Source of the DNA: an uncultured Dehalococcoidia bacterium
GTDB taxonomy: Bacteria > Chloroflexota > Dehalococcoidia > DSTF01 > RBG-16-68-14
Length of the DNA stretch: 64,000 nt
Direction of reading: 5' to 3'
NCBI GenBank assembly: GCA_964418365.1
Contig: CAYQLM010000003.1
Span: 150-64,149, forward strand
Shown: positions 919 through 33,457 of the stretch, piece after piece
Layout: each line of letters begins with the position of its first letter
Position numbering within the stretch: the first letter of the stretch is position 1
Notes under the pieces: model-generated
What the model was told of the DNA's origin: nothing
Seen by the model: the letters and a program-made list of their open reading frames with translations, nothing else
Databases searched by the model: none
Translations under genes and position numbers: made by a program

Positions 919-3726
919 GTGAACGCGGACAGCTCGAGCCACTGGGATGCCGACGATGGACACCGCCCTTTGAGCCAACCCGCGCGCCCGGCCCTGCGCC
1001 GCTCGATCGCCACGTGGCGCCCGGCCCGAACCCAGGTCCAGGCCGTCGCGCTGCTGGCGGCGGCCGGCTTCGCCTACAACGGCGCGCGCATCCTCAACGA
1101 CAGCCCCCAGCGTACTACGCCGGTCCTGGACAACTTCGATGCCTCGCTGCCCTGGCTGGGCCTCGCGCTGCTGGCGCTCGTCGTGGCGGCGCTCAGCTAC
1201 CGGCCCGTGCGCCTGCATTGGCGCGCAGGCGCGCTGGCCGAGCTCTGGCGCGCCCACTGGGTTGAGATCCTCCTCTTCGCCGGCATCTTCGCCTTCGGCG
1301 TGTTCATGCGCGTCTACCGCTTCCAGAGCTCGCTGCCGCCGTCGGACGGCCTCTGCTGCGAGGAGTCGATCAACGGCGGCGTCGCCTATCGCGCGCTGCA
1401 GGGGATGCGGCCGCTCAACTTCCTGATCACGCGCTGGGGCAGCGCGGCGGGCTTCGCCGTCTTCGGCGAGAACACACTCGGCCTACGCTTCTTCTTCGTC
1501 GTGATGGGCATCGTCACACTCATCGCGTTCTACTTCCTGCTCCGCGAGCTCGTCAGCGTGCCCGTCGCGCTGTTCGGCATGGCGCTCTACGCCGCAGCGT
1601 GGTGGCCTTCGTTGCGCGCGCGTCAGGCTTCCGAAGGCACGATCTACGCCGTGCTGTTCGCGCTCGTCCTCGTACGCGGATTGAAGACGAAGAACCCCCT
1701 CTGGCTGCTCGCCGCCGGCGTGCTGGCAGGGCTGCTGTCATACGAATACGAGCCGTTCAAAGCTGTGCCGATCGTCGGCGCGCTTTTTCTCGGCGCAGCG
1801 GCCGCGCGCGAGGTGCTCCTGCGCGCGCCGATCTCACCCTCTGCCGCCTTGACGCGCGCTCGAGCGCTGACACGCGTCGCATGGCAGCCGCTCATCATCG
1901 CGCTGATGGCGACGGCGGTCGTGCTGGTCCCGATGATCGTCGGCACACACCGCGGCCTCGATCTCTACCTGACCTCCGTGCACCGGCAGGAGGGCGGCCG
2001 CGCGGGCGATACAGTCGCGAGCCAGTGGCGGACGCAGCTCAAGTGGGAGGCGCAGATCTTCCTTCCGATCGGCCCGAACGAGTATCCCACCTCGCCACCG
2101 CGCGACATCCCCGGCAAGGACCTGCTCGATCCGTTGACGGGCTGGCTGGCGCTGGCGGGACTGGTAGGCGGCGTCGTGTTTGCGTTCCGCAGCCTCCGCG
2201 CGCTGTTTGCGGGCTGGGTTATCGTCAGCATCGGCGCGGGGGCGTTGCTGCTGACGGACTTCGGGCCGTGGAAGTTCATCACGCTCGTGCCGGTGCTCAT
2301 CGCGCTCATTGCGTTCCTGCTGGATGACGCGCGCCGCCTCGTTACGGACCGTTTCGCGCAACGCGGCGCGATGGCGTTCGGCGCGCTGCTCGTCGCCGGC
2401 GCAGCGTTCATCTTCTGGTGGAACGCTGACACGCTCTTCCGGCAGGTGGCGCCGTCGAGCGTTGTCGCCCAGAGCTACGGCGGCGAACGGGCGATGATCT
2501 ACTCCGTCTGCCACGATCTGCAGGGACGCCCGAACGACAACTACACTGTCGCGTACAGCGGCGACGGCGGGCTCAATGGCTTCGCGCAGCGCCGTGACAG
2601 CTTCGACGCGGAGCTGCGTGCCTGGGGCGACTTCATCTGGATCTGCCACGACGTGAAGGGTGCCGCGGTGCCGGCTGTGGAAGAGCTGTGGCCACTGCGG
2701 GATCTACCGCCCGGGCCGCTGACGATCGTGGTCGCAGATCCGCTTGGGAAGATCGACGACGCTCTTGCGCAACTGCGTCAGGTATACCCGTCGCTCGGCG
2801 ACCCCAGCCGGCGCGGCGGCGGGACGAAGCAGGGGTACGAGTACGTCGAGTACAACTTCGCCAGCGCGAGGGAGTTGGGCACGCCAGGGCTCTCGGCACA
2901 GTACATCGCGGAGAACGACACCCAGGCGCCGGGCCGCGTTGATCCCGTCAACGATCTGAACTGGGACCAGGTCGGGCTCCCGCTTCCGCCGCCGTTCTTG
3001 GTGCGCTGGCGAGGGCTTATCTACTACTCGGGCAGGTCTAGTTCGGCGAGCCTCCATGCGCTGACGGACGAGGCTGTGGTCATCAGCATCGACAACCAAA
3101 TCTTCTATGACACGCGACCAGGGCAACAACGGGACGTGGTGAACGATCTCGTCGCCGGATGGCATCAGGTCGACATCGCGCTCGAAAAGCAACACGCGGG
3201 CGGCAGCCTTCGCCTGGTGTGGACATCGCCCGATGACCGAGACCGCCCGGTCTTGGCACAAGATCTCTTCCCGATTTCATCGATCGCCGGTTGGGTACAC
3301 CAGCGCTCGCTCGGGCTGCCGAGCGATCCGAAACAGCAGATCACGCAGCGCTTTGATTTCGAGCCGCACTTCGTCTCAACCGCGCCGCTGACGGCAGCTG
3401 CGCGGACGACGTCGTCGGAACCGATCCTCACGGAGGAGCGCTGGCGCGCCGTATGGCACGTCGATCAAGCGGGCGATTACACGCTGCGCGCAGACTTCCC
3501 GGCGGGGACGGTGACGCTGCTGGTCGACGGCGCGCAGGTGGCGTCGGAACAGACACCGCTTTCCGGCCCTGGCCAACTGCAAGCAACGGTCTCACTCACG
3601 GCGGGGCCCCACACGGTCGAGCTGGTGCAGAAGCTCGACACTGACGTACCAGTCGCGGGGCTCACGCTCTCTGCCATCCCGCCCGGTCAGTCACAGCCCA
3701 TGCAGATGAACGTGACGCCGTACTAG
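919..3726 (+). CDS. GT-C-fold polytopic membrane glycosyltransferase candidate with a large C-terminal beta-sandwich (PA14/lectin-like) domain
   Basis: 935 aa. N-terminal ~450 aa have more than 10 predicted TM helices. The first extracytoplasmic loop contains CCEESINGG, matching the DESAIINGA loop of the paralogs at 15788 and 18103. The C-terminal ~350 aa are soluble, with a PA14-like stretch (DYTLRADFPAGTVTLLVDGAQVASEQ...TAGPHTVELVQKL). GTG start; exact start uncertain. Confidence 0.55.
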   Translation: MNADSSSHWDADDGHRPLSQPARPALRRSIATWRPARTQVQAVALLAAAGFAYNGARILNDSPQRTTPVLDNFDASLPWLGLALLALVVAALSYRPVRLHWRAGALAELWRAHWVEILLFAGIFAFGVFMRVYRFQSSLPPSDGLCCEESINGGVAYRALQGMRPLNFLITRWGSAAGFAVFGENTLGLRFFFVVMGIVTLIAFYFLLRELVSVPVALFGMALYAAAWWPSLRARQASEGTIYAVLFALVLVRGLKTKNPLWLLAAGVLAGLLSYEYEPFKAVPIVGALFLGAAAAREVLLRAPISPSAALTRARALTRVAWQPLIIALMATAVVLVPMIVGTHRGLDLYLTSVHRQEGGRAGDTVASQWRTQLKWEAQIFLPIGPNEYPTSPPRDIPGKDLLDPLTGWLALAGLVGGVVFAFRSLRALFAGWVIVSIGAGALLLTDFGPWKFITLVPVLIALIAFLLDDARRLVTDRFAQRGAMAFGALLVAGAAFIFWWNADTLFRQVAPSSVVAQSYGGERAMIYSVCHDLQGRPNDNYTVAYSGDGGLNGFAQRRDSFDAELRAWGDFIWICHDVKGAAVPAVEELWPLRDLPPGPLTIVVADPLGKIDDALAQLRQVYPSLGDPSRRGGGTKQGYEYVEYNFASARELGTPGLSAQYIAENDTQAPGRVDPVNDLNWDQVGLPLPPPFLVRWRGLIYYSGRSSSASLHALTDEAVVISIDNQIFYDTRPGQQRDVVNDLVAGWHQVDIALEKQHAGGSLRLVWTSPDDRDRPVLAQDLFPISSIAGWVHQRSLGLPSDPKQQITQRFDFEPHFVSTAPLTAAARTTSSEPILTEERWRAVWHVDQAGDYTLRADFPAGTVTLLVDGAQVASEQTPLSGPGQLQATVSLTAGPHTVELVQKLDTDVPVAGLTLSAIPPGQSQPMQMNVTPY

Positions 3727-4355
3727 GCAGGCGCAAGCACGTACGCCCGCTCCATGAACAGGCCCCGCAGCAGCGCGTGGCTCCCAACGGCGCGCAGTCC
3801 ACTCTCCGCAAACTCCTGCTCGAGCTCGCTGGCGGAGACGTAGTAGCGCGGCACCGGCTTCCGCAGCAGCAGACCGTAGAAGAGCCACCAGATCGCCATC
3901 CGATGCGGTTGGTAGACGGCCACGACACGTCCGCGCGCGACACGGGCCAGCTCGCGCAGCACGGCGATGCGCGCCTCGCGCGGCAGGTGCGACAGCAGCC
4001 TGAAGCAGACCGCGGCATCGACGCTCTTGTCCGCGAAGGGCAACCGCTCTCCTTCGCCGCGCACGAGCGCCGCTTGGGCCGAGAGCGCGCGCGCCCGGCC
4101 GAGCATCGGCAGCGAGATGTCCGCCCCAACAACGCGGTAACCGGCCTCCGCGAGCCAGCGCGCCATCCGTCCCGTGCCGGTCGGCAGGTCGAGCATAAGC
4201 GCAGCGGCCGGCAGCCCGGCGATCGAACGCATCAGGAGCCGCCGCTCGAGTTGGTTGACGAAGCGGCCGCGAAGACCGCGAAAGCGCGCGTCATCGTACG
4301 TCGCAGCGATCTCCTCGCGCTGGTAGTGCCGCTTCGCACCGTAGGTCTCGGTCAC
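3723..4355 (-). CDS. Class I SAM-dependent methyltransferase (Methyltransf_11-like)
   Basis: 210 aa. Motif I DLPTGTGRMARWLAEAGYRVVGADIS and a post-I acidic residue. Its start overlaps the upstream gene stop (ATGA coupling). Confidence 0.8.
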   Translation of the reverse strand: MTETYGAKRHYQREEIAATYDDARFRGLRGRFVNQLERRLLMRSIAGLPAAALMLDLPTGTGRMARWLAEAGYRVVGADISLPMLGRARALSAQAALVRGEGERLPFADKSVDAAVCFRLLSHLPREARIAVLRELARVARGRVVAVYQPHRMAIWWLFYGLLLRKPVPRYYVSASELEQEFAESGLRAVGSHALLRGLFMERAYVLAPA

Positions 4356-5326
4356 GACAAGGCACCTTGCGTCTCGCCGAGGAGATCGCGCAGCACGTCG
4401 GGCGTCAGTGTTCCCTTGGGGAGCGTCAGCCGCTCGCAGCGCGCACCGGCTAGCCCGCGTGCGAGCACGTCGCGCCAGCGCGAGGCGCCGGACTCATCGC
4501 TTCGCAGCGCGTCAGACACACCGTAGACGTCGTCGTGGCGCGCCGCGGCGCGCGCGAGCGCTTCAATCACGTCCTCTGCCCGCGCCGGTTCGCTGCGCCG
4601 TCCCGATCCGTTGCCGCGTTCGAGCCAGACAATCCGTGACAGCGCACCGCCGTTCGTACCGCCCTCGAGACCGAGCTCATCCGGCGCAACGTGCACCAGC
4701 GGGTCGAGCCGTCTAGCGGTCACTAGCGCCGCGGTCGCCGCTGCCCGCAGCGCGAGGCCCCGCCGTGCAGACAAACGTCGCGCGAGCTGAGGGGCTGCGG
4801 CGAGCGCCGCGCTCCGTAGAGCGATGACGCGAAGCACGGGCGTCACAACGCCCGCCGCCGAGACGCCGATGTACTCGTCGCCCGAGAGACGCGCGCCGGA
4901 TCCGAGCGCCGCCAGCAGCAGCGCCGTCTTGCCCGAGCCGGTCTCGCCGGCCAGCACGGTGGCTTTGCCGCCGGACGCGAACGCCGCGCCCGTGATGAGC
5001 GCGATGTCCCGCTGGAGGAGCAAGCGCCGGAGCGCCGGCAGCAGCGCGATGTGCAGCGCGAGATACTCGCGCAGGAGCGGGCTGCGCCAGGAGAGCGCGA
5101 GCCGGCCATCGGGTCGCGCCGTCACGCCACAGCGCCACGGGACGCCCCTGTAACGTCCTTGCGCAATATCGCCGGTCACATCCTTAGCGCCCAGTTCCAA
5201 GAAAAGCGTCGGCACTGCGTGCGGCGCAACCTCGCTGCCGAGGCAGCGGGCGAGCAGCGCCGGCCGCTTCGAGGCGCGCAGCGTGACGGTGATGTCGGGC
5301 GGAACGTCGAACGACCAGTCGCTCAT
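4352..5326 (-). CDS. HprK-related P-loop kinase-domain protein
   Basis: Walker A VLAGETGSGKTALLLAALGSGARLSGDEYIGV resembles the HPr kinase/phosphorylase C-terminal domain. Start placed at MSDWSF (ATG 5324-5326), overlapping the upstream GT2 stop. The longer ORF-track N-terminus (to 5647) is antisense overlap of the GT2 gene. Confidence 0.5.
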   Translation of the reverse strand: MSDWSFDVPPDITVTLRASKRPALLARCLGSEVAPHAVPTLFLELGAKDVTGDIAQGRYRGVPWRCGVTARPDGRLALSWRSPLLREYLALHIALLPALRRLLLQRDIALITGAAFASGGKATVLAGETGSGKTALLLAALGSGARLSGDEYIGVSAAGVVTPVLRVIALRSAALAAAPQLARRLSARRGLALRAAATAALVTARRLDPLVHVAPDELGLEGGTNGGALSRIVWLERGNGSGRRSEPARAEDVIEALARAAARHDDVYGVSDALRSDESGASRWRDVLARGLAGARCERLTLPKGTLTPDVLRDLLGETQGALS

Positions 5327-6342
5327 TGCGCGCCGGCGCTGCGCGTCCAGAGCGCGCGCAGGCACCACGAACGGTTGCGCGCGGCCTGCTCGCGCACCTG
5401 ACGCCGCTTCGCCGCGTACTTGGGCAGCTGGACGAGCATCGTCGCGAGCGCGAGCAGCGTCGCGGGCGCCAGCGCGAGGCCGTAGAGGAGCTGCCGCTTC
5501 CGTTTCAGGCCGAACTCGAGGGCATTGAACGGCGCACCGATCGTCATCAGCGGTACCATCAGCGCGAACTCCCAGCCGGACATCACCTTGTAGAACGCCA
5601 GGTAGCGATTGCGGATGATACGCACCGTTTTCGTCGCCGTCCCCCACGAAAGGCCGGCCTGCAATCGGTGCTTGTGGTAGACGACGGCGCGCGGCACGGC
5701 CACGGACCGATAGCCCAGCGCGCGAACGCGCAGCCCGAGATCGAGGTCCTCAGCGTAGGCGAAGAAGTCCCTGTCGAACACGTACCCCAGCTCTTCACCT
5801 ACACTGCGTCGGAGCACGATGCAGACGCCGTGCAGGAACAGCGTGTCGTACAGCCGATCCGAGGTCGGCAACCGCTTGTACCCGATATAGCCGAGGCGGT
5901 TCACCTCCGATGTGTACGCGACTGTCGACGCCGCGCGCGTCTCGATGCCGCGGTACTCCGGGTACCAGGGCTGGATGATGTTCGCGTGGCCCGCCGCGAT
6001 CTGCGGTGACGATCGCATTGCATCGATTAGCTCGCGCAGGCACGATCGATGGACGACCGTGTCCTCGTTCAAGAAGACGGCTAAGCTGCCCGTCGTGTTG
6101 CGGAAGCCAATGTTGTTGCCCTCCGCGTAGCCTTCGTTGCGCTCGAGCGTCAGCACGCGTGCGCGAGGATACTGCTCGCGCACCAGGTCACCGCAGCGGT
6201 CGCGCGATCCGTTGTCGATGTAGAGCACTTCGTACTGGTCCGCCGGTAGGTCCTGGTCGAGCACGGACGAGAGGCAGCCATCGACGAACTCGCGGCCCCA
6301 GTAGCCGAGGATGATCACGCTCGCGAGCGGCGCTCCCGGCAT
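5323..6342 (-). CDS. Family 2 glycosyltransferase (GT-A fold)
   Basis: 339 aa. VIILGYW...DQDLPADQYEVLYIDNGSRD, a DxD-like EDLD motif, and a membrane-associated C-terminus. Confidence 0.8.
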   Translation of the reverse strand: MPGAPLASVIILGYWGREFVDGCLSSVLDQDLPADQYEVLYIDNGSRDRCGDLVREQYPRARVLTLERNEGYAEGNNIGFRNTTGSLAVFLNEDTVVHRSCLRELIDAMRSSPQIAAGHANIIQPWYPEYRGIETRAASTVAYTSEVNRLGYIGYKRLPTSDRLYDTLFLHGVCIVLRRSVGEELGYVFDRDFFAYAEDLDLGLRVRALGYRSVAVPRAVVYHKHRLQAGLSWGTATKTVRIIRNRYLAFYKVMSGWEFALMVPLMTIGAPFNALEFGLKRKRQLLYGLALAPATLLALATMLVQLPKYAAKRRQVREQAARNRSWCLRALWTRSAGAQ

Positions 6343-7509
6343 CTATCGCTCGTCCATCAGCAACGCCGTCAGAAAGCCGCCCAACGCCATGTTCGCGCCG
6401 ATAATGATGGTGGTCTGCGCCGTCGCCGCGAGGCCTTCGGTGCGGCCGGAGTGGTGCTTCGCCAGCCACTCGAAGAAGATCACCCCGTCCAGGCCGACGC
6501 CGATCAGGATCAGCAGCGCCGCCAGCGCGAGCATGCGCTCCAGCGTGACGAGGCGGTTGAACAGAATGGTGAGGCCGTCTTCCGGGATGATCTTGCGCTT
6601 CGCCGCATACAGGTGCGTCGAGATGCCGATCATCATCGCGTTCGCGCCGATGATCAGCAGAATTCCGCCCGCGAACACGGGCTGCCACCTCAGCGTGCCG
6701 ATGTGCACGCCGCTCTGCGAAGCGAGCGTGACGCCGAGCGCCAACGCGCCTAGCAGTACGAGCACGAGCCCCGGTACGAGAAAGAGATAGAGGGGCGTAT
6801 TGAGCAGCAGGAAGCGCAGGTGCCGCCAGCCGTCTCGGAAGGTGTTCAGCTTGCTCTCGCCCTGGCGCGCCGAGTACGGCACCGGCACCTCGGCGATGCG
6901 CAGCCCGCGCCTCGAAGCCTTGAGGATCATCTCGGACGCCAGCTCCATCCCGTTCGAGCGCAGCTCCATCTTCTCGTACGCCGCGCGGGTGAATGCGCGC
7001 AGACCGCACTGGCTATCGCCGACGCGCGCGCCCGCGAACAGCCCGAGGAGCATCGTGATCGCCGGCGTGCCGATGACGCGATGGCTCCACGTCATCGAGC
7101 CCGGTGCCAGGTTTTGCAATCGATTGCCCACGGTCATGTCATATCCGTTGCGCAGCGGCTCGATAAGCTGGTCGAGGTGAAGCAGGTCGTACGTGTCGTC
7201 CGCATCCGCCATGACGATGATCTCGCCGCGCGCCTCCGCGAAGCCGCGCCGGTTCGCCGCCCCGTAGCCCTCTACCCGCTCGTCGACGACGGTTGCGCCA
7301 GCGCGCTCCGCTTCTTCGCGCGACCGGTCCGTCGAACCGTTGTCGACGACGATCACCTCGCCCCGCAGGCCGGCATCGCGGAACCAGCGACGCGCCTTCG
7401 AAACGCACGCCGCGACCGTCGCGGCTTCGTTCAGGCACGGCAGCACGACGGAGACGTCGCATTGCGTCTCACGCGCTGTTCGCCGTTCGTCTGCTGCCGC
7501 CGTCGTCAT
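6343..7509 (-). CDS. Polyprenol-phosphate sugar synthase (GT2, Ppm1/DPM1/GtrB-like) with C-terminal TM anchor
   Basis: 388 aa. VVLPCLNEAATV...VVDNGSTDRS...ADADDTYD catalytic core, followed by 4 TM helices, as in GtrB/Ppm1 lipid-monophosphosugar synthases. Confidence 0.8.
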   Translation of the reverse strand: MTTAAADERRTARETQCDVSVVLPCLNEAATVAACVSKARRWFRDAGLRGEVIVVDNGSTDRSREEAERAGATVVDERVEGYGAANRRGFAEARGEIIVMADADDTYDLLHLDQLIEPLRNGYDMTVGNRLQNLAPGSMTWSHRVIGTPAITMLLGLFAGARVGDSQCGLRAFTRAAYEKMELRSNGMELASEMILKASRRGLRIAEVPVPYSARQGESKLNTFRDGWRHLRFLLLNTPLYLFLVPGLVLVLLGALALGVTLASQSGVHIGTLRWQPVFAGGILLIIGANAMMIGISTHLYAAKRKIIPEDGLTILFNRLVTLERMLALAALLILIGVGLDGVIFFEWLAKHHSGRTEGLAATAQTTIIIGANMALGGFLTALLMDER

Positions 7510-7527
7510 CGATCGCTCATGATAGGA

Positions 7528-9645
7528 TCACTGGCCAATGCTGTAGACCTCGTACGGCCCGATCTCCGTGACGAGTTTCGCCGACGGTAGCTGGCTCAGC
7601 GCCGCGTCTGCGTTGCTCGAGTATGTAGCGATGGCGTACCGCACGTGCGATTCGCTCAGCGCGCTCGCGAGCGCATCGCCGCTGAGCTGTCCTTGGTACA
7701 GCGCCATCACGGGCGGGCGCTCCCACTGCCCGATGATAGCCTGTGAAAAGACAGGCTGTACCTGCCACAAGACGCCCGGCAGATGCAGGCTCACGTCGTC
7801 GGGCGCGAGCACGACCGGGCCCTCCGGCGCGTGCGTGCGCAGGTAGTCGATCATCTGCCGCTCGTCCGGCTTGATGCGCCACTCGCGCGAGAGCAGCCGG
7901 TCCTTCCCTCCGAGGAAGATCGAGTGCTCCGTGCCCTTCACGATCGTGTCCGTGCTCGCCCACGTGTAGTACGTGCCGTGATCCGCCGGAAAGTACAGCT
8001 CCTGCACGAGCAGCGCGCCTGAGAGGAGCACGGCAGCCGCGGCTGCGGGCGCCAGAACGCGCAAAACTGACAGACTGCTTCGCCAACGGCGCGATGATCG
8101 CAGCAGGCGGTGGACGGCGTACGCCCAGACGATCGCGGCCGGCGCCATGTACGGCAGACGCGCGGTCAGCTCGGCGGACGCCAGCTTCGCAGCGACGGTG
8201 GAGAGCGGTGGGACGAAGAACCAGGGCAGCCAGCCGAGCATCGCGGCGAGCACGGCCTGATGGGCCGGCAGCCGCCGCGCCCGCCACCAGATCAGCGGCG
8301 CGAGCACGAGCGAGCCGATCATCAGCGGGTGCAAGATGAGGTGGAAGTTGCCCATGATCATCTTGCCGAGAAGGTGGACGATCTTGAACTCCTCGCGCCA
8401 GGTGAGCGTCGTGTCGAACAAGGCCGGCCACGAGGTGTTGAAGGCGTGCCAGACGATGAACTGGCCGAACGTGAACGCGGCGAGCGGCAGCCCGAGCGCT
8501 GCCGACCACAGCAGCGGCCGCCAGGAGCGCTTCGTCGCCGACCGGAACAGCGCGAGGGCAAGCAGCGTAACGCCGAGGAACAGCAGCGGCTGCGGGTGCA
8601 CGACGAAGAGCGCGAGGCAGACGAGAGCGAAGCAGGCCAGCGTGCTCGGCCGCGCGCGCCGGAAGAACTGCGCGACGAGGAGCAGTCCGATCGGGAACAG
8701 GATGTACGTCCCGACCATCTTGTCCTCGCTCATGCGAAACAGGAAGGTTGCGCCGAGCCCTTCGTCGTGCGACATGTCGATCAGCGCGTAGCCGAGCTGG
8801 ATCAGCACCGCCAGCAGCGCCACCGAGCGGCCGCGGAACAGACCCTTCGCGAGCGCATACGTCGCCATCAGCGCGAACACGATCAAGATCGGCGTGAGAT
8901 CGTTCATCACGACGTTCTCAGCGCTGATGCCCGCCGTGCGCGCAATGGCGGCCTGGAAGACGACCCAGGCGTTGATCTCCATCCTGGGGTAGGCCGCCTC
9001 GCCGACGCCGACCGGGTGGAGCGGATTGATGTGGCCGCTGTGCAAGTAGCTGTTGACGTAGGTCATGTAGCGCCAATCGTCGAAGTTGCGCGCGAGGCGA
9101 TCGCCGCCCCAGTACGGCGACGTCAGGACGCCGCCCGCCGCGACGGCGAACAGCAGCAGCAATATCAACGTCGATGCGTTCCAGCCGCGAACGGTGCGCG
9201 TCAACCAGACGCCGGCCGCCGGCGGCGCAACGAACGCCGAGCCCGCGGCGACCACCGCCGCCACCGCGACGTGAATTCGGATGCAGGCTTCGAGACTCGT
9301 GCCGAGCCAGAGCGCGAGCAGCCCCGACGGCGCGGCGATCGCGAGACCGAGCGGGAACGCGATCGCCAGCCGTTCGACGATGTCCGCGCGCGAACGCGGC
9401 AGCAGCGCATCGTGCAGGAGCAGCCCCGGCACGATGATCATGCTCAGGAAGACAAGGATGGCTGCAGGGTAGCCGGGGAGTCCGGAGAAGACGCGCGCCT
9501 CGAGCGCCAGCAGCTCCAGGGCCAGCACCACCGCCCCGCCGAGCGCTCCGCGCGCGAGCCGGAGCATCAGGGCGCTGTCCAGCGCGGCTCCGGCCGTCAG
9601 CTCGCCGGGGCGGGCGCGCGCTTGCTTTCGAAGGCTCTCCAGCAT
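7528..9645 (-). CDS. Polytopic membrane protein (~14 TM) with C-terminal soluble domain; possible GT-C-like glycosyltransferase
   Basis: Start set at MLESLRKQ (ATG complement 9643-9645), which has a GGGGGAG RBS 8 nt upstream. First loop after TM region: YWGGDRLARNFDDWRYMTY (acidic DD). Last gene of the minus operon 3723..9645. Confidence 0.45.
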   Translation of the reverse strand: MLESLRKQARARPGELTAGAALDSALMLRLARGALGGAVVLALELLALEARVFSGLPGYPAAILVFLSMIIVPGLLLHDALLPRSRADIVERLAIAFPLGLAIAAPSGLLALWLGTSLEACIRIHVAVAAVVAAGSAFVAPPAAGVWLTRTVRGWNASTLILLLLFAVAAGGVLTSPYWGGDRLARNFDDWRYMTYVNSYLHSGHINPLHPVGVGEAAYPRMEINAWVVFQAAIARTAGISAENVVMNDLTPILIVFALMATYALAKGLFRGRSVALLAVLIQLGYALIDMSHDEGLGATFLFRMSEDKMVGTYILFPIGLLLVAQFFRRARPSTLACFALVCLALFVVHPQPLLFLGVTLLALALFRSATKRSWRPLLWSAALGLPLAAFTFGQFIVWHAFNTSWPALFDTTLTWREEFKIVHLLGKMIMGNFHLILHPLMIGSLVLAPLIWWRARRLPAHQAVLAAMLGWLPWFFVPPLSTVAAKLASAELTARLPYMAPAAIVWAYAVHRLLRSSRRWRSSLSVLRVLAPAAAAAVLLSGALLVQELYFPADHGTYYTWASTDTIVKGTEHSIFLGGKDRLLSREWRIKPDERQMIDYLRTHAPEGPVVLAPDDVSLHLPGVLWQVQPVFSQAIIGQWERPPVMALYQGQLSGDALASALSESHVRYAIATYSSNADAALSQLPSAKLVTEIGPYEVYSIGQ

Positions 9646-9730
9646 CTCGGTTCGGCTCCCCCAGAGATCTAACGCGAGGGGGCCGCTCAGATGAACGGTA
9701 GCGGCCGGAAGCCCCGCCCGGCAACGGGTG

Positions 9731-10759
9731 CTACTGGTTCGCCGCGGGCGCCACGTCCGCTGACCTGCCTTCAGCGACAGCCAGGACTGCCTGCGCCAGC
9801 CGCTCCGGGTCGTGGCGGAGGTATGTCCCTGCGCTGGCGAGCGGCAGGCTGACGACGTGCGGGACCAGCCGGCGGCACTCCTCCAGGTCCGCCTCGACGA
9901 CGAAGGAACCCTCGGACTCATAGCGCTGCTGCACGCGTGGCGGCACCGGCGCCGAGTTGATCAGTACCGTATCGAGCGCGTCCTCCGCGCCCAGATACTC
10001 CCGCACGACGCGCACGAAGTCCGACGCCGCGAAGCCGTCCGATTCGCCGCGCTTGGTCGCCAAGTTGCACACGAAGACTTTGCGCCCCTTCGACGTGCGC
10101 ACGGCCTCCGGCACGCCATCGACAGCCAGGTTCGCGACGATGCTCGTGTACAGATCGCCCGGGCCGAAGACGACGACGTCCGCCTCGCGGATCGCCTGCG
10201 CGGCAGCGGGGTTCACGTACGCATGCGGATCGAGGTACACGTAATCGATCGGCACATCCACCTTCTCGCGCCGCACATCGAGCCGGTCCTCGCCCACGAT
10301 CACCGTGCCGTCGGTGAGGCGCGCGCAGAGGTCTGTCTTCGAGAGCGTCACCGGCAGCACTCGCCCGCGGATGCCGAGGATGTTGCCCGCCTCCTCGATT
10401 GCGCGGTCGATGCTGCCCGTGATCTCGACAAGTGCGGTGATGAACAAGTTGCCGAAGCTGTGGCCGTTCAGGCCGGAGCCTTTGGCGAAGCGGTAGCCGA
10501 AGAGCTGTCGCAGCAGCAGCGTCGCGTGCTCTTCAGGCGCGAGAGCCGCTAGGCACTGGCGGATGTCGCCCGGAGGCAGATGACCGAACTCGTCGCGCAG
10601 GCGGCCGGAGCTGCCACCGCGATCGGTCATCGCGACCACCGCGGTGATGTCGACCTCGTGCCGCTTGAGGCCGGTGAGGATAATGTGCGAGCCTGTCCCG
10701 CCGCCGATGACGACGATCTTCGGCTTCGTCGTGCGCAGATCGCGAGGGCCGGACGGCAT
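9731..10759 (-). CDS. yvcK: Gluconeogenesis factor / UPF0052 family protein (YvcK/CofD-like)
   Basis: 342 aa. KIVVIGGGTGSHIILTGLK...DITAVVAMTDRGGSSGRLR is the YvcK/CofD signature. Confidence 0.85.
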   Translation of the reverse strand: MPSGPRDLRTTKPKIVVIGGGTGSHIILTGLKRHEVDITAVVAMTDRGGSSGRLRDEFGHLPPGDIRQCLAALAPEEHATLLLRQLFGYRFAKGSGLNGHSFGNLFITALVEITGSIDRAIEEAGNILGIRGRVLPVTLSKTDLCARLTDGTVIVGEDRLDVRREKVDVPIDYVYLDPHAYVNPAAAQAIREADVVVFGPGDLYTSIVANLAVDGVPEAVRTSKGRKVFVCNLATKRGESDGFAASDFVRVVREYLGAEDALDTVLINSAPVPPRVQQRYESEGSFVVEADLEECRRLVPHVVSLPLASAGTYLRHDPERLAQAVLAVAEGRSADVAPAANQ

Positions 10760-10771
10760 GTGAGGCCCTGC

Positions 10772-12058
10772 CTACACGCCGAAGACGCGCTCTGCGTCCG
10801 GGCGGAGGCGGCCTGTAGGATCGAGGATGACGCGCGCGTGGCGAGCGACGAGGTCGAGATCGATCGCCTTGTGGGGACAGAGCAGGATCGCCGCGTCCAC
10901 GCTGCTGAGTAGCCGTGCGTCGAGCGGCTGCGATTGCAGTGTCTCCCCATCGATTGTCAGAGACGGCACGTGCGGGTCGTGGTAGAGCACGCGCGCGCCG
11001 GAACCCAGCAGCTCCGCTGCGACCGCGAACGCGACGGAGCCGCGCGTGTCATCGATGTTGGGCTTGTACGCAACGCCGAGCAGCAGCACGGCGGGCGAGG
11101 TCTTGTCGCCCAAGAGCGACAGCGCGCGCTGCGCTACGCGGCGCGGGAGCGCATCGTTCAGCTCTATCGCCGCGGCCGTGACCGGGAGCTCCGCGCCGGC
11201 GCGCTCCGCGGCCCACGCAAGGTAATGCGGCGCCATCGGGATGCAGCGCCCCCCGACGCCCGGGCCGGGCCGGTGTGCCATGAACGCGAACGGCTTCGTG
11301 CTCGCCGCGTCGATCACCTCTTGCACATCGAGGCCCATCGCGCCGCACATCACGGCCAGCTCGTTCGCCAGGCTGATGTTGACGAACCGGAACGTGTTCT
11401 CGAAGACCTTCGCCAGCTCGGCGATCTCCGGACTGGAAACCGCGTGCACCTGCGGCGCGACGAAGCGGTACAGCTCGGACGCGACGGCGGCGCACTGCGG
11501 CGTGATGCCACCGACGAGCTTCGGGATCGATTCCACCGGGTGGGCTGTGCTGCCCGGGTCGATGCGCTCCGGCGAGAAGGCAAGGAAGAAGTCGCGTCCC
11601 GCACACAAGCCCGACGCCTCGAGCGCCGGCAGAACGACATCGCGTGTGGTGCCGGGCGGGACGGTGCTTTCGAGCACGACGAGCATGCCCGGGTGCAGGT
11701 TCCGGCCGATGTCGCGCGCGGCGTCCGCGACGGCGCTCACGTCGGGAGTGCCGTCCGGCTGGTAGCTCGTCGGAGCGGCGATGATGACGCAGTCGGCCTC
11801 ACTGAGGCTTTCGAAGCGATCACTGAGCTTCCAAAACTGGTCAATGTCCGCCGGCCGCGTGCCGTTCGAGAGCGCTGCCACACACTCAGAGCTGACATCG
11901 ATGCCCAGGACCCGAAAGCCGGCGCGCATGAAGACGGCGGCCTGCGCCAGGCCGACGACGCCAAGTCCCACCACCGCGACCGTCGCCTCGCGGCTTCGGA
12001 TGCGGAACGAAACACTATCCGCTGAGACGGTAAGCGTCCCCACGTGTACCCTCAGCAA
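10772..12058 (-). CDS. Nucleotide-sugar dehydrogenase (UDP-N-acetyl-D-mannosamine/glucosamine dehydrogenase, WecC/WbpA-like)
   Basis: N-terminal Rossmann VAVVGLGVVGL; central FENTFRFVNISLANELAVMC; catalytic Cys region GVGGRCIP; C-terminal UDP-binding domain. Start is uncertain: the ORF begins at TTG 12058, with an alternative GTG 15 nt downstream. Confidence 0.8.
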   Translation of the reverse strand: MLRVHVGTLTVSADSVSFRIRSREATVAVVGLGVVGLAQAAVFMRAGFRVLGIDVSSECVAALSNGTRPADIDQFWKLSDRFESLSEADCVIIAAPTSYQPDGTPDVSAVADAARDIGRNLHPGMLVVLESTVPPGTTRDVVLPALEASGLCAGRDFFLAFSPERIDPGSTAHPVESIPKLVGGITPQCAAVASELYRFVAPQVHAVSSPEIAELAKVFENTFRFVNISLANELAVMCGAMGLDVQEVIDAASTKPFAFMAHRPGPGVGGRCIPMAPHYLAWAAERAGAELPVTAAAIELNDALPRRVAQRALSLLGDKTSPAVLLLGVAYKPNIDDTRGSVAFAVAAELLGSGARVLYHDPHVPSLTIDGETLQSQPLDARLLSSVDAAILLCPHKAIDLDLVARHARVILDPTGRLRPDAERVFGV

Positions 12059-12354: not shown

Positions 12355-13404
12355 ATGAAGCTTGTCGTCATCATCCCGGCGCTCAACGAAGAACGGTCGC
12401 TGTCCGGCGTCCTCGATCGCATCCCCACGCACATCCCGAGCATCGATGAGATCGAGACTGTCGTCGTCGACGACGGCTCGATAGACGGTACGCCGCGCGT
12501 GGCGCTCGACCACGGCGCGGACGTCATCTCCCACAACACGAACCTCGGCCTCGGACGCGCGTTCGCGAACGGCATCGATGCCGCGCTGCGCCGCGGCGCC
12601 GATGTCATCGTCAACCTCGACGCGGACGGCCAGCACCCGCCCGAGGAGATCGCCAAGCTGATCGAGCCGATCCTTTCGGGCCGCGCCGACTTCGTGACGG
12701 CGACCCGCTTCTCTGACCCGGAGCTGCTCCCGGAGATGCCGGGGCTGAAGCGCTGGGGCAACCTGATGATGGCCAGACTGACCGGCTGGGCCTGCGGCCG
12801 CCCCTTCACCGATGTCGCTTGCGGCTTCCGCGCCTACTCGCGGAGCTGCGCGCTCAAGATCAACATCTTCGGTGCGTACACCTACACACAGGAGACCCTC
12901 GTCGACCTGCATCGCAAGTCGCTCACGATGGAAGAGGTGCCGATCGCGATCCGCGGCGTACGCGAGCACGGCCGATCGCGCATCGCCCACAGCGTGCTGC
13001 GCTACGGCCTGCGCACGTTCACCATCCTGGCGCGCGCCGTGCGTGACAGGCTACCGCTGACCTTCTTCGGCTCGATCGGCATCCTGCTCACACTGCTCGG
13101 CGCAGCGACAGAGATGGTCGTCCTGATCAACTTCATCATCTTCGGGCAAACCAGGCCGTATACCTCGTTCACCATCCTGGGCGCAATCTTCCTCATCTTG
13201 GGCGCGTTCTCCTTCCTCACGGCACTCCTCGCCGACATGCTCGGCCGTGTCCGTGAGACGCAGGAGCAGATTCTCTTCATCGAAAAGCGCCGCTACTACG
13301 ACGACCTCACGCGCGAGCACCTCGCGTTCTCGAGCAACGGCACCCAGGCCGCACCCACCATTACCCCGACGGAGAAGGAGCGGGTTCCGGCAGGACGTCA
13401 ATGA
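12355..13404 (+). CDS. Polyprenol-phosphate sugar synthase (GT2, GtrB/Ppm1-like) with C-terminal TM helices
   Basis: 349 aa. VVIIPALNEE...VVVDDGSIDGT...NLDADGQH, then 2-4 TM helices. Paralogous in architecture to 6343..7509. Confidence 0.8.
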   Translation: MKLVVIIPALNEERSLSGVLDRIPTHIPSIDEIETVVVDDGSIDGTPRVALDHGADVISHNTNLGLGRAFANGIDAALRRGADVIVNLDADGQHPPEEIAKLIEPILSGRADFVTATRFSDPELLPEMPGLKRWGNLMMARLTGWACGRPFTDVACGFRAYSRSCALKINIFGAYTYTQETLVDLHRKSLTMEEVPIAIRGVREHGRSRIAHSVLRYGLRTFTILARAVRDRLPLTFFGSIGILLTLLGAATEMVVLINFIIFGQTRPYTSFTILGAIFLILGAFSFLTALLADMLGRVRETQEQILFIEKRRYYDDLTREHLAFSSNGTQAAPTITPTEKERVPAGRQ

Positions 13405-14648
13405 CCGCCGGTTCCCAGCGTCCTGAAGGCGGCGGCAACGGGGCTGTCCGCGTCACCCTCATCAGCACACTGCCACCGCACAAAGGCGTCGCCGATTACA
13501 CGGCGCATCTCGTCGCCGGCCTCGCGAACACGCCCGGCGTCTCGCTCGAGGTGATCGACTTCGCGAGCCTGTACCCGCGCCGCCTGTACCCCGGCGGCGA
13601 GCTACAGGATTCGACAGCGCGGCGACCGCAGTTCCCCAACGTCCGCGTCCGGACCATGCTGCGCTGGTGGAACCCGTTCTCGTGGCTCTGGGCGGGGCTC
13701 ACGCTCAAGGGGCAGGTCGTTCACGCGCAGTGGTGGAGCTTCATCCTCGCGCCGCAGTACATCGCCGTGCTGTCGCTGGCGCGGCTGCGCCGCCGGCGCG
13801 TCGTCATCACCGTCCACAACGTCGAGCCGCACGAGGCCGGCCGCTGGCAGCGCGTCCTCAACCGCCTCGTGCTGCGCCTGGCCGACACGTACGTCGTCCA
13901 CGACGCGCGCAGCCGCGATCGGCTGACCGAGTTCGTCGCGGCGGCCAAACCCATCGAGGTGATCCCGCACGGCATCCTGGCCTCGTCCGGCGATCGACTT
14001 TCGCTCGCCGGCGCCCGGCGCATGTTGCGCATGGCCGCGGACGACAAGATCGTGCTCTGTTTCGGCAATATCCGGCCCTACAAAGGCGTCGACGTCTTGC
14101 TGCGCGCCTTCGCCCGCGTGCGCGAGGGCGTTCCGGAGGCGCGCCTCGTGATCGCCGGTAAGCCATGGGAGGACTGGTCCCCCTACGAGCGCCTGATCGA
14201 TGAGCTCGATCTCGTTGACGCGGTCGACACGCATCTGGGGTTCGTGCCTGCGACGCAGGTCGGGGCGCTCTTTGCTGCAGCAGACGTTGTGGCGCTGCCC
14301 TACCTTCGCTTCGACGCCCAGAGTGGCGTCGGCGCGCGCGCGCTCTACCACGAGAAGGCGCTCATCGTGACCGATGCCGGTGGTCTGCCGGAGCTCGTCG
14401 CCGACGAACGCGCCATCGTCCCGCCCGGCAACGTCGAGCAGCTCGCGGACGCGCTCGTCGCGGTCCTGACGGACGACGCGCTCCGCGCCAAGCTCGAGGC
14501 CGGCTCCGTTGCGCGCGCCCGCGACCTGAGCTGGGATGCCATCGCTGCGCAGACGGCGCGCCTCTACGCGTCGCTGGCCGATAGGAGCGTCCGTGACGCG
14601 CCGTTGCCGCTGGCCGAGGAGCGGCCGCGACAAGAGGAGCACGTGTAG
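13401..14648 (+). CDS. Family 4 glycosyltransferase (GT-B)
   Basis: 415 aa. C-terminal GT4 domain (KIVLCFGNIRPYKGVDVLLRAF...ALIVTDAGGLPELV). ATGA overlap with the upstream gene. Confidence 0.8.
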   Translation: MTAGSQRPEGGGNGAVRVTLISTLPPHKGVADYTAHLVAGLANTPGVSLEVIDFASLYPRRLYPGGELQDSTARRPQFPNVRVRTMLRWWNPFSWLWAGLTLKGQVVHAQWWSFILAPQYIAVLSLARLRRRRVVITVHNVEPHEAGRWQRVLNRLVLRLADTYVVHDARSRDRLTEFVAAAKPIEVIPHGILASSGDRLSLAGARRMLRMAADDKIVLCFGNIRPYKGVDVLLRAFARVREGVPEARLVIAGKPWEDWSPYERLIDELDLVDAVDTHLGFVPATQVGALFAAADVVALPYLRFDAQSGVGARALYHEKALIVTDAGGLPELVADERAIVPPGNVEQLADALVAVLTDDALRAKLEAGSVARARDLSWDAIAAQTARLYASLADRSVRDAPLPLAEERPRQEEHV

Positions 14649-14660
14649 GAGCACGCTACC

Positions 14661-15785
14661 GTGAAGATCCTCATCGTTTCGCCGCTGGATATCTTCCCGC
14701 CGAATACCGGCGGCATGAGCCGCACATACAACATGGCGAAATACCTCGCGCGACGGCATCACGTCGCGCTGGCATGTCCCCGGCTCGCGTCTCCGGAGGC
14801 GAAGGACCTGCCGATCGACGTGCACGAGCTCGGCGCGCCGGGCCGCAGGCAGTTCATCGACCCGCGCTACGCCGCGCGCCTCCGCTCGGTCGTCCGCGAG
14901 ACGTCGCCCGACGCGATCATCAGCAGCTTCATGTGGCCCATGCTGCCGGTCGCGCTCGCGCGCCTGCCGAAGGCGACGCCGCTCTACCTCGACACGCACA
15001 ATGTGGAGAGCGATCGCTTCCGGCGCGCTGGATCGCGTTGGTGGCGCGTGATGGCGCTATACGAGCGGTTCGCGCTGCGCCTGGCCAAGCGGGTCTTCGT
15101 CGTGTCCGAAGACGACCGCGAGAGGCTGCGCGCGCTGGGCATGCCGGCGAGCAAGGCCGTGCTGGTGCCGAACGGCTACGACGACGAGCGCTTCCGGCCC
15201 GATCCGTCAGCAGCAGCAGCGATGCGCCAAGCGCTCGGGGTGCCCGAGGGCGAGCTGCTCTTCCTTTACTTCGGTCACCTCCAGTACGCGCCCAACATCG
15301 AAGGGCTGGAGGTGCTTCATCGCGAGCTGCTGCCGCGCCTCGACGCGCACGGCGCGCGTTATCGCGTCGTCGTCGCGGGCCGGGGCGCGCAGGAGCTGTC
15401 GGCGCGCATCCAGCATCCGCGTCTGCTGTACGCCGGCCTGGTCGATCGCATCGAGGACGTGGTCAACGCCTCCGACGCGGTGGTCGCGCCGTTGCTGCGC
15501 GGCGGCGGCACGCGCATCAAGATCATCGAGAGCATCGCCTGCGGCCGCCCTGTCGTGAGCACGACCGCCGGCGCCGAGGGCATCGACCGCGAGGCCTGCG
15601 GTGACCTGCTGCGCGTCTTCGATGGGTGGGACGCCTTCGCGTGCGCCATGGTCGCGGTGGCGACGGCACCGTCGCCGAGCGCGCCGCCGGCCGCCTTTCG
15701 CGAAGAGTACGCGTGGAGCGCCATCGTGGAGCGGATGGAATTCGGGGTCGGCCCCGCGTTCGCTTCGGCGGACTCGAGGAGATAG
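14661..15785 (+). CDS. Family 4 glycosyltransferase (GT-B)
   Basis: 374 aa. KILIVSPLDIFPPNTGGMSR N-terminus; GT4 C-terminal domain (LLFLYFGHLQYAPNIEGL...IIESIACGRPVV). GTG start. Confidence 0.8.
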   Translation: MKILIVSPLDIFPPNTGGMSRTYNMAKYLARRHHVALACPRLASPEAKDLPIDVHELGAPGRRQFIDPRYAARLRSVVRETSPDAIISSFMWPMLPVALARLPKATPLYLDTHNVESDRFRRAGSRWWRVMALYERFALRLAKRVFVVSEDDRERLRALGMPASKAVLVPNGYDDERFRPDPSAAAAMRQALGVPEGELLFLYFGHLQYAPNIEGLEVLHRELLPRLDAHGARYRVVVAGRGAQELSARIQHPRLLYAGLVDRIEDVVNASDAVVAPLLRGGGTRIKIIESIACGRPVVSTTAGAEGIDREACGDLLRVFDGWDAFACAMVAVATAPSPSAPPAAFREEYAWSAIVERMEFGVGPAFASADSRR

Positions 15786-15787
15786 CG

Positions 15788-20001: not shown

Positions 20002-20041
20002 GCGTCCAGCACGTGACGCAGCGCTACGGGGCAACGGGCTG

Positions 20042-20833
20042 ATGTCAATGCTCGATAGTGCTCTCGCCGCGAGACGCACGTTCGTCTCGTCGTATGAGTA
20101 CGCGGTTTATCGCACGGTCGGCATCCTCAACGTCGTTCGCTGGCTGGAATGGCCCGCGATCGAACGATGGACGGCGATCCAGCCCCAGGAACGTCTCCTC
20201 GATGCCGCGTGCGGCCGCGGTTCGCTAACGTTTCGTCTGGCCAAGCGCACCCGGGCGGCATATGGCTTCGACATTTCGGCTCAAGCGATACGCCGGGCGC
20301 GCCGGGTCGCGGAGCGAGCCGGAAGCAGCACGCGGTTCGCCACTGCCAGCGCTGAGCATCTGCCGTTCAAGACGGAGTCGTTCGACAAGATCGTTTCCAG
20401 CTCCTCACTTGAGCACTTCCGTGACGGCGAGCTGGCGATAGCCGAAATGGCGCGAGTCCTGAGGACCGGCGGAACACTGGTCCTCACGACGGACAACCTC
20501 CAATCGCTCGCCGATGAGCTTCGCGAGCAGCACCGCAAGGCCTCGTCGGTGTCGCACTACTACACAGAGGATGAGCTGCTGGCGAGCCTTCGCCAATTCT
20601 TGGATGTCCGCCGGACGCGGTACCTGATCAACTCGCCGGTTTCGAAGTTCTTCTATCGGATTGGCGTTCGCCTCGATTGGGGAGGGACGCTGGCGAAGAT
20701 GCTGGTCTGGCTTCCTTTGTGTTTTATCGCCTATCCTAGCTCTCTGGTGGCGGATGCCCTGTTCGGGTCACCCTGGGACGGGTATACCTTCATGGTCGAG
20801 GCTTTGAAGACGCAGCCGGTAGTTCGCTCATGA
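20042..20833 (+). CDS. Class I SAM-dependent methyltransferase
   Basis: Motif I LLDAACGRGSLTFRLAKR, then FDKIVSSSSLEHF and VLRTGGTLVLTTDN. Start chosen at MSMLDS; the ORF-track start at 19985 overlaps the upstream gene. Confidence 0.7.
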   Translation: MSMLDSALAARRTFVSSYEYAVYRTVGILNVVRWLEWPAIERWTAIQPQERLLDAACGRGSLTFRLAKRTRAAYGFDISAQAIRRARRVAERAGSSTRFATASAEHLPFKTESFDKIVSSSSLEHFRDGELAIAEMARVLRTGGTLVLTTDNLQSLADELREQHRKASSVSHYYTEDELLASLRQFLDVRRTRYLINSPVSKFFYRIGVRLDWGGTLAKMLVWLPLCFIAYPSSLVADALFGSPWDGYTFMVEALKTQPVVRS

Positions 20834-23252: not shown

Positions 23253-23265
23253 CCTGAGACACAGC

Positions 23266-33446: not shown

Positions 33447-33457
33447 CCCACCGCTCC

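Follow-up and report, generated by a model that had tools for sequence, protein, structure and literature searches.

A coupled P-loop protein and class I methyltransferase at the end of a Dehalococcoidia glycosyltransferase operon: a probable tailoring pair for a lipid-linked sugar

What do two adjoining genes, one for a P-loop protein and one for an S-adenosylmethionine (SAM)-dependent methyltransferase, contribute to the glycosyltransferase operon that they close? The operon lies on the minus strand of contig CAYQLM010000003.1 (assembly GCA_964418365.1, an uncultured Dehalococcoidia bacterium), within the 64,000-nucleotide stretch that was analyzed and is referred to below as the window. A preliminary description read the two as an HprK-like kinase and a methyltransferase that together form a split version of the chain terminator WbdD. 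The evidence presented here supports a translationally coupled, evolutionarily conserved functional pair inside the operon but suggests a different role. The pair probably tailors a lipid-linked sugar and is probably not a split WbdD, because it travels with enzymes of lipid-linked sugars and not with an ATP-binding cassette (ABC) exporter. The two genes and their main features are as follows.

4352–5326, minus strand: P-loop protein, 324 amino acids, soluble (ATG at 5326, stop at 4352)
3723–4355, minus strand: class I SAM methyltransferase, 210 amino acids (GTG start at 4355; Pfam)
5323–5326, minus strand: ATGA stop/start overlap between a family 2 glycosyltransferase (GT2) gene (5323–6342) and the P-loop gene
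4352–4355, minus strand: GTGA start/stop overlap of 4 bp between the P-loop gene and the methyltransferase gene
4925–4948, minus strand: Walker A motif GETGSGKT, residues 127–134 of the P-loop protein (G130, G132, K133, and T134 invariant in the family)
4874–4882, minus strand: GDE motif (G149, D150, E151), 17 residues past the Walker lysine, counterpart of ADD in HprK and GDD in PEPCK
4167–4193, minus strand: SAM-binding motif I LDLPTGTGR, residues 55–63 of the methyltransferase (D56, P58, G60, T61, G62, and R63 invariant)
3846–3905, minus strand: aromatic/basic segment HRMAIWWLFYGLLLRKPVPR, residues 151–170 of the methyltransferase (family-conserved; the only internal region of the model with a low predicted local distance difference test score)

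The P-loop open reading frame (ORF) does carry exactly the sequence quoted in the preliminary description for its HprK-type Walker A, VLAGETGSGKTALLLAALGSGARLSGDEYIGV, at residues 124–155, and the partner downstream is a Methyltransf_11 protein as described (Pfam Methyltransf_11/25, E values of 6–8e-18). The two genes overlap by four base pairs, but the overlap reads GTGA; the ATGA that had been assigned to it lies one junction upstream, between the GT2 gene and the P-loop gene. The GC fraction at third codon positions is 0.82 in the frame of the P-loop ORF but only 0.50 where that frame is extended mechanically upstream of ATG 5326, because that DNA is the GT2 gene in another frame.

Is the pairing particular to this genome? 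Wherever sequence downstream of the P-loop gene is present, the orthologous methyltransferase follows it directly (in the window and in the sampled loci L001–L011, L013–L015, L017, L019, L020, L022, L023, L025, L027, and L028). In L016, by contrast, one gene intervenes before the orthologous methyltransferase, and the P-loop start is overlapped by a second methyltransferase gene. The 4-bp overlap itself is found in 9 of 13 loci (the window, L001, L002, L005/6, L013, L015, L017, L027, and L028), and the earlier description of the two as a genuine pair is thus borne out by adjacency and overlap alike. The pairing persists in relatives only about 20–25% identical, one of them assigned by NCBI to an Omnitrophota metagenome-assembled genome (MAG), and nine short metagenome contigs from a narrower-alignment search show the same adjacency. 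Compared within the same loci, the methyltransferases are 57–65% identical and the P-loop proteins 42–45%, which makes the methyltransferase the slower-evolving partner. Judged by sequence, the module is an undescribed family pair kept across phyla.

The P-loop protein is HprK-like in its motifs. Within its family, the invariant residues comprise the four Walker A positions listed above, the G149-D150-E151 triplet, R166, R171, P209-L210, and W234, with Y59, K60, W64, E87, Y88, and H92 among the near-invariant residues of the N-terminal part. In an alignment of 76 members of the wider superfamily only K133 and D150 remain invariant, and K60, W64, P97, G127, G132, and L193 are nearly so. The protein thus has a Walker A motif of the form GxxGxGK[ST] and an acidic pair at the HprK spacing, and the family consensus of this segment aligns gaplessly to Lactobacillus casei HprK (1jb1, GDSGVGKSE...RGHRLIADD), although at E 0.06 this match is weak from sequence alone. 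Motif comparison confirms the HprK type of motif and spacing. Membership in a known HprK family is a different matter. The best match to any curated model, TIGR04352 (HprK-related kinase A), covers residues 110–176 only and scores 24.9 bits (E 9.3e-6) against an NCBIfam cutoff of 200 bits, and neither Pfam Hpr_kinase_C (PF07475) nor TIGR00679 matches. The label "HprK-like" therefore holds at the level of the superfamily, in motif and fold, and fails at the level of the profiles that the preliminary description had named as a check. The ATP-dependent phosphoenolpyruvate carboxykinase (PEPCK) model PEPCK_ATP (PF01293) likewise gives no match, and the FomB model NF000361, similar in length at 325 positions, matches weakly (E 0.008).

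The predicted structure resolves more of this relationship. Foldseek places the model closest to PEPCK (E 8e-9, query-normalised TM-score 0.61–0.64), with HprK at about 6e-5. The C-terminal part matches the HprK C-terminal domain, and the protein as a whole adopts the two-domain PEPCK-like fold over its full length, a fold that places the active site between its domains. Its N-terminal domain aligns to PEPCK and not to the N-terminal domain of HprK, and no HPr gene is present in any locus, so this is not a bona fide HprK/P. Nor does the protein show the full catalytic set of PEPCK (Mn2+ ligands H232 and D269, together with a Pfam match). In a profile comparison with Escherichia coli PckA only residues 99–161 align, at a probability of 45% and with a 3-residue gap, and the Mn2+-binding H232 of PckA falls opposite the variable T112. 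With H232 not conserved and the alignment limited to the P-loop region, a PEPCK-type catalytic site was rejected, and the missing Mn2+-binding histidine makes carboxykinase chemistry unlikely. Going by the model, the protein is best described as a "mini-PEPCK," in which an N-domain like that of PEPCK is combined with a P-loop domain like that of HprK, and not as a carboxykinase. No extended helix or coiled coil was found in the 324-residue globular model, and no transmembrane segment in either protein of the pair.

The HprK/PEPCK-like superfamily is known for a carboxykinase of central metabolism, for a protein kinase that serves carbon catabolite control, and for kinases of peptides and phosphonates. 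The P-loop protein differs from each of them. HprK/P has ADD where this protein has GDE. Against HprK/P and the HprK-related families (TIGR04352, TIGR04355, ScmC, and the lasso-peptide kinases) its scores, like those of its relatives, are far below every curated cutoff; no HPr, peptide precursor, or PqqD partner is encoded here, and the context is glycan and lipid. PckA has about 540 residues against 324 and is 11–14% identical. FomB, a fosfomycin-monophosphate kinase, acts on a small and anionic substrate, but all scores here lie far under its 400-bit cutoff and no phosphonate biosynthesis context surrounds the pair. A search of PDB chains with the family sequence profile gave nothing significant, the best matches being generic P-loops (PriA and RuvBL, E 0.12), with HprK at E 1.4–2. 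The protein stays below every curated Pfam and NCBIfam cutoff. The possibility raised earlier that it might prove to be a nucleotide or sugar kinase of a known pathway is not borne out; it belongs to the HprK/PEPCK-like superfamily and to none of the known pathways for nucleotides or sugars.

The P-loop protein is the first member here of a family that has no Pfam or NCBIfam model. In 5.8 billion protein clusters there are only 24 close homologs, none of which has a name, and those that could be placed all come from Chloroflexota/Dehalococcoidia MAGs. When 1.84 billion representatives were searched with a profile, 2198 relatives appeared at E<=1e-3, the best-scoring of which are mostly about 310–350 residues long and match across most of the profile. 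Among the 76 superfamily members, weak matches were to FomB (22), HprK_rel_A (21), HprK_rel_B (13), hpr-ser (6), and ScmC (4), none of them at cutoff. These searches define a further branch of the superfamily, of about 2200 cluster representatives at E<=1e-3, in which the P-loop protein, in all of the roughly 20 loci sampled, is tied to one small methyltransferase within lipid-linked glycosylation loci. No kinase-methyltransferase fusion was found among the longer superfamily members; one of these, P0115 (729 residues), resembles a tandem duplication of the kinase-like domain.

The second partner is a class I SAM-dependent methyltransferase, with the Rossmann-like seven-strand fold and motif I. 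Its 85 orthologs are all 203–232 residues long except for a few truncated fragments, none is fused to another domain, and the 210-residue protein of the window has no extension. Whether by sequence or by fold, its matches are nothing but generic class I methyltransferases of small molecules, including ChlM, UbiG, phosphatidylethanolamine (PE) N-methyltransferase, phosphoethanolamine methyltransferases, sugar O- and N-methyltransferases, and DhpI, together with weak matches to the sugar O-methyltransferase MftM and a D-glucose O-methyltransferase; WbdD was not found among the sequence and fold matches. The conserved segment HRMAIWWLFYGLLLRKPVPR may be a membrane-interface element or a substrate lid.

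What, then, might the pair act on? Seven minus-strand genes with nil or minimal spacers make up the operon, and no terminator-like site was found within 3723–12058. Upstream of the pair, and beyond its end on the opposite strand, lie the following genes.

10772–12058, minus strand: nucleotide-sugar dehydrogenase (TIGR03026, 346 bits), promoter-proximal gene of the operon
9731–10759, minus strand: YvcK-family protein, CofD-related and UDP-GlcNAc-binding (TIGR01826, 307 bits, cutoff 196), promoter-proximal
7528–9921, minus strand: GT-C-like protein with about 12 transmembrane segments (weak DUF6541 match; mechanical ORF of 797 amino acids)
6343–7509, minus strand: GT2 with a four-helix C-terminal membrane domain, AglJ/GtrB/ArnC-like (TIGR04182 AglJ, E 3.6e-50; transmembrane segment count)
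5323–6342, minus strand: second GT2, 339 amino acids, with one C-terminal hydrophobic segment (Pfam PF00535/PF13632)
919–3726, plus strand: PMT_2-type GT-C transferase, 935 amino acids, with a large C-terminal extracytoplasmic domain (Pfam PMT_2, Big_3_5)

Two GT2 genes (5323–6342 and 6343–7509) thus lie directly upstream of the pair, as previously noted. The membrane-anchored one (6343–7509) also matches a dolichyl-P-hexose transferase model (E 1e-31), its homologs show a GT2_TM_C domain, and it is presumed from these matches to be a polyprenyl-phosphate-sugar synthase. Homologs of the GT-C-like protein have 706–710 residues and cover only about 89% of the 797-residue ORF, which would overlap the YvcK-family gene; its true start is therefore probably downstream of 9921, near 9650–9700. 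The YvcK-family gene, which also weakly matches a "GAK system CofD-like" model, stays with the operon in no clade but the closest one (L002, L006, and L007). A phospholactate link of the CofD/F420 type was considered and rejected, the neighbor being a YvcK-family protein and not CofD, and not being kept with the pair outside the closest clade. On the other side, the methyltransferase and PMT_2 genes are convergent and their TAG stops overlap in a CTAG palindrome at 3723–3726, which leaves no space for an intergenic terminator. A PA14 match in the L003 homolog of the PMT_2 protein is faint.

The same kinds of neighbors recur across loci. A GT2 with the TM_C domain stands near the pair in 12 loci, with a GT2 plus DUF2304 instead in L016 and L027, and a GT2 like that at 5323–6342 co-occurs with the pair in L002–L007, L009, L015, and L028. 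A PF03706 protein is encoded directly upstream of the pair in nine loci (L001, L003, L004, L009–L011, L014, L015, and L028), and a Wzx-like protein of 394–398 residues lies inside the module in L016 and L027. A GT-C of the PMT_2 or STT3 type is present in the window, L002–L007, L009, L015, L017, L027, and L028 (STT3 in one relative), orthologs of the 935-residue PMT_2 protein adjoining the pair in L002–L007, L009, and L015. Taken across loci, a carrier-loading glycosyltransferase, a flippase-like protein, and a GT-C are co-encoded around the pair. In L015 (11613–13877) and L028 (11052–13289) the methyltransferase is followed by a multi-transmembrane protein of about 750 residues without a Pfam match; the two are 53% identical to each other and have no detectable similarity to the 797-residue GT-C-like protein of the window.

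The Arn and Gtr systems follow a logic in which a GT2 loads a lipid carrier, the loaded sugar is tailored and flipped, and a GT-C uses it. Lipid-loading membrane GT2, cytoplasmic tailoring, a flippase-like protein, and a GT-C likewise occur together in Arn (ArnC/ArnD/ArnEF/ArnT), GtrA/B/C, GpgSDF, and HexSDF, and the combination of a glycosyltransferase, a cytosolic tailoring enzyme, and a UPF0104 flippase is an established operon logic that includes gpgSDF (PMC12713373). PF03706 has been described as a lipid translocator domain and proposed to be a phospholipid translocator (bioRxiv 10.1101/2022.03.11.483950). In the known systems the tailoring step is a deformylation or deacetylation, whereas a P-loop protein and a methyltransferase would occupy that position here. 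We know of no lipid-linked sugar system in which a P-loop phosphotransferase and a methyltransferase have been described as the tailoring step.

Because the neighborhood matches this sequence of GT2, tailoring, flippase, and GT-C, we propose that the pair is a module of two cytoplasmic enzymes that tailors a lipid-linked sugar anchored in the membrane; the particular route set out here is tentative, and we give it somewhat less than an even chance. The membrane-anchored GT2 (6343–7509) would attach a sugar to polyprenyl phosphate on the inner side of the membrane. The P-loop protein would then transfer a phosphoryl group by means of the Walker A lysine and threonine and the acidic pair of the GDE motif, from ATP or possibly, as in HprK, from pyrophosphate (PPi), to a head group, small and anionic, that would sit in the cleft formed by the PEPCK-like N-domain and the P-loop domain. 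A small anionic head group is favored over a protein because the PEPCK-like cleft carries the conserved K60 and W64, because distant relatives show an affinity, if weak, to FomB (a small-molecule phosphonate-monophosphate kinase) as well as to HprK-related kinases, and because no peptide partner is encoded. The coupled methyltransferase might use its aromatic/basic segment to dock at the membrane and would methylate this substrate too, at the new phosphate, a hydroxyl, or a carboxyl. A flippase-like protein (PF03706 or Wzx-like in relatives) would next flip the tailored lipid-linked sugar, and a GT-C (PMT_2 here, STT3 in one relative) would use it as donor outside the membrane. The logic would be that of ArnC-ArnD-ArnEF-ArnT or GpgS-GpgD-GpgF, with a kinase and a methyltransferase as the tailoring step. 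If the P-loop protein does phosphorylate a lipid-linked sugar, this would be a new tailoring chemistry for envelope-decorating GT2/flippase/GT-C systems and would also open a way into the envelope glycans of Chloroflexota and Omnitrophota, which are almost unstudied. At present, the locus provides a well-defined gene pair with directly testable chemistry, and not a demonstrated mechanism.

Several observations weigh against this proposal. The phosphotransfer activity, the methyl acceptor, the lipid-linked substrate, the order of the two reactions, and the docking at the membrane are inferred, and the structural matches of the methyltransferase, being generic, give no hint of the acceptor atom. 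Of the HprK relatives that have been characterized, most have proteins or peptides as substrates (PMC8498205). The Mn2+-binding H232 of PEPCK is not conserved in the P-loop protein, so that the catalytic metal site would differ from both the HprK and the PEPCK models. No PF03706 homolog was found in the window, whose clade has a GT2 in that position. Finally, in L014 (351–7269) the trio of PF03706, P-loop, and methyltransferase genes is followed by a ketoacyl synthase, a B12-binding radical-SAM enzyme, a short-chain dehydrogenase/reductase, and a second ketoacyl synthase, and no glycosyltransferase was found on this 7-kb contig. In this context, the substrate could be a membrane lipid and not a polyprenyl-linked sugar.

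The L014 arrangement, with its fatty-acid-type genes, leads to the alternative that survives best, in which the P-loop protein phosphorylates and the methyltransferase methylates the head group of a phospholipid or glycolipid, and PF03706 moves the product to the outer leaflet in the manner of MprF. The position of PF03706 directly before the pair in nine loci and its proposed function as a phospholipid translocator would fit such a scheme. Most loci, the window included, nevertheless embed the pair between GT2 and GT-C genes, the clade of the window is without any PF03706, and the likeness of the methyltransferase to PE N-methyltransferase falls within the range of generic class I enzymes. 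We consider modification of a membrane lipid unlikely, though it is the alternative most worth keeping in view.

Would the P-loop protein need to be a kinase at all? The reaction of HprK includes a phosphorolysis that yields PPi, and in the archaeal Agl pathway AglP methylates a hexuronic acid. The protein of the window could be a PPi-dependent phosphorylase, a pyrophosphatase, an enzyme resembling a carboxykinase, or no more than a nucleotide-dependent scaffold for recruiting the methyltransferase, which would merely O-methylate a sugar as AglP or MftM does. The weak matches to MftM and a D-glucose O-methyltransferase point in this direction, as do the AglJ-like GT2 and the nucleotide-sugar dehydrogenase, both of which recall the Agl pathway. 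The strict conservation of the Walker lysine and threonine and of the acidic pair argues instead for catalysis on a phosphoryl group, and the carboxykinase variant has to contend with the missing histidine. We regard a role of this kind as quite unlikely.

The pair may make a phosphate-plus-methyl modification and, if it does, the context points to the polyprenyl-phosphate-sugar, flippase, and GT-C route and not to an ABC transporter. Taken one step further, the pair might make a methyl-phosphate sugar on polyprenyl phosphate in the cytoplasm; once this had been flipped, a GT-C would transfer it, "pre-capped" and non-extendable, to a glycan or glycoprotein outside the membrane, so that chain termination or decoration would proceed via a dead-end donor. 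The pair would then be an ABC-independent, non-homologous counterpart of WbdD, drawn from a new HprK/PEPCK branch spread over several phyla, and would represent an independent invention of the WbdD cap. We hold this extension to be a long shot, about as doubtful as a P-loop protein that is not a kinase.

Less probable again is a serine kinase or kinase/phosphorylase acting on a protein or peptide, of the HprK or lasso-peptide type, that regulates glycosylation enzymes or marks a protein substrate of PMT_2, with the methyltransferase acting on the same polypeptide. It would account for the HprK-type P-loop motif with its identical spacing, for the weak matches of relatives to HprK_rel_A/B, hpr-ser, and ScmC, and for the presence of PMT_2, which is a protein O-mannosyltransferase family; characterized homologs phosphorylate HPr or the C-terminal serine of lasso precursors (PMC8498205). 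Against it stand the PEPCK-like full-length fold, with an N-domain unlike that of HprK, and the neighborhood: no precursor peptide, PqqD or RiPP recognition element (RRE), cyclase, or HPr-like gene is conserved beside the pair in any locus, and no conserved small ORF was found in the tightly packed operon. A role in the maturation of peptides that are made on the ribosome and modified after translation (RiPPs) was rejected, since precursor, RRE, and cyclase genes occur in no locus.

The remaining reading is the split WbdD. In E. coli O9a, WbdD is one polypeptide of 708 residues that unites a class I methyltransferase, a kinase of the eukaryotic type of fold, a coiled-coil ruler, and recruitment of WbdA, and its methyl-phosphate cap is read by the carbohydrate-binding module of Wzt (PMC3482155). 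What the pair has in common with it is a glycan locus that combines a phosphotransferase-type enzyme with a class I SAM methyltransferase, so that a methyl-phosphate product is conceivable; the methyltransferase resembles that of WbdD only in generic class I features and has no specific similarity to it. The exporter of the window and the other glycan block are arranged as follows.

32652–33641, minus strand: Wzm, paired with Wzt in the window
31790–32671, minus strand: Wzt, 293 amino acids (matches nucleotide-binding-domain positions only of TagH/Wzt models)
33458–34270, minus strand: Methyltransf_11 protein, 270 amino acids, upstream of Wzm/Wzt and flanking the exporter
31160–31789, minus strand: divergent methyltransferase-like ORF, 209 amino acids, abutting the Wzt stop and flanking the exporter
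12355–24738, plus strand: third glycan block, separating the two minus-strand operons, with a GT2, several family 4 glycosyltransferases (GT4s), two GT87/PMT_2-type GT-Cs, and a Wzx-type (Polysacc_synt_3) flippase

A Wzm/Wzt exporter is therefore present in the window as the preliminary description had stated, but to count it in one supercluster with the pair goes too far: 26 kb separate the two, the exporter belongs to a different minus-strand operon that also holds GT4s and genes of the rhamnose pathway, and the plus-strand block at 12355–24738 intervenes. Co-occurrence was judged from the flanks of pair-containing loci, that is, in the direction from pair to exporter. Among the approximately 14 distinct loci with usable flanks, Wzm/Wzt is found within 10 kb of the pair only in L001, where it lies about 7 kb away on the opposite strand, with genes for TetR, an acyl-CoA ligase, a sigma factor, and a thioredoxin in between; about 13 of the 14 loci have no Wzm/Wzt in their flanks. 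With 293 residues and matches confined to nucleotide-binding-domain positions, the Wzt of the window has no cap-reading carbohydrate-binding module. The block of Wzm, Wzt, and two methyltransferases recurs as a unit in L001 (1–2881), and if a polymer exported by the ABC transporter does receive a methyl cap, the exporter-flanking methyltransferases are better candidates for making it than that of the pair. The O-antigen frame is also the wrong one for this organism, which is known from a Chloroflexota MAG, and a literature search for HprK-like kinases in polysaccharide loci found nothing, leaving unconfirmed the earlier statement that such kinases are known as accessory genes of exopolysaccharide loci.

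The split WbdD, in which the kinase would phosphorylate and the methyltransferase methylate the non-reducing end of a cytoplasmic polymer so that elongation stops and export by Wzm/Wzt is licensed, has in its favor a coupled kinase-like protein and class I methyltransferase after GT2 genes, an exporter in the window (and one about 7 kb from the pair in L001), and the proof, through WbdD, that a phosphate-methyl cap made with a class I methyltransferase is natural (PMC3482155), but it is the least probable of the readings, a very remote prospect, given a kinase partner of PEPCK/HprK and not protein-kinase-like fold, no coiled-coil ruler or polymerase-recruiting domain, an exporter that is distant and has flanking methyltransferases of its own, a Wzt without the cap module, and recurrent GT-C and flippase-like partners that mark an ABC-independent route. 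The third block, with its own flippase and GT-Cs, brings the number of distinct glycan assembly routes in the window to at least three.

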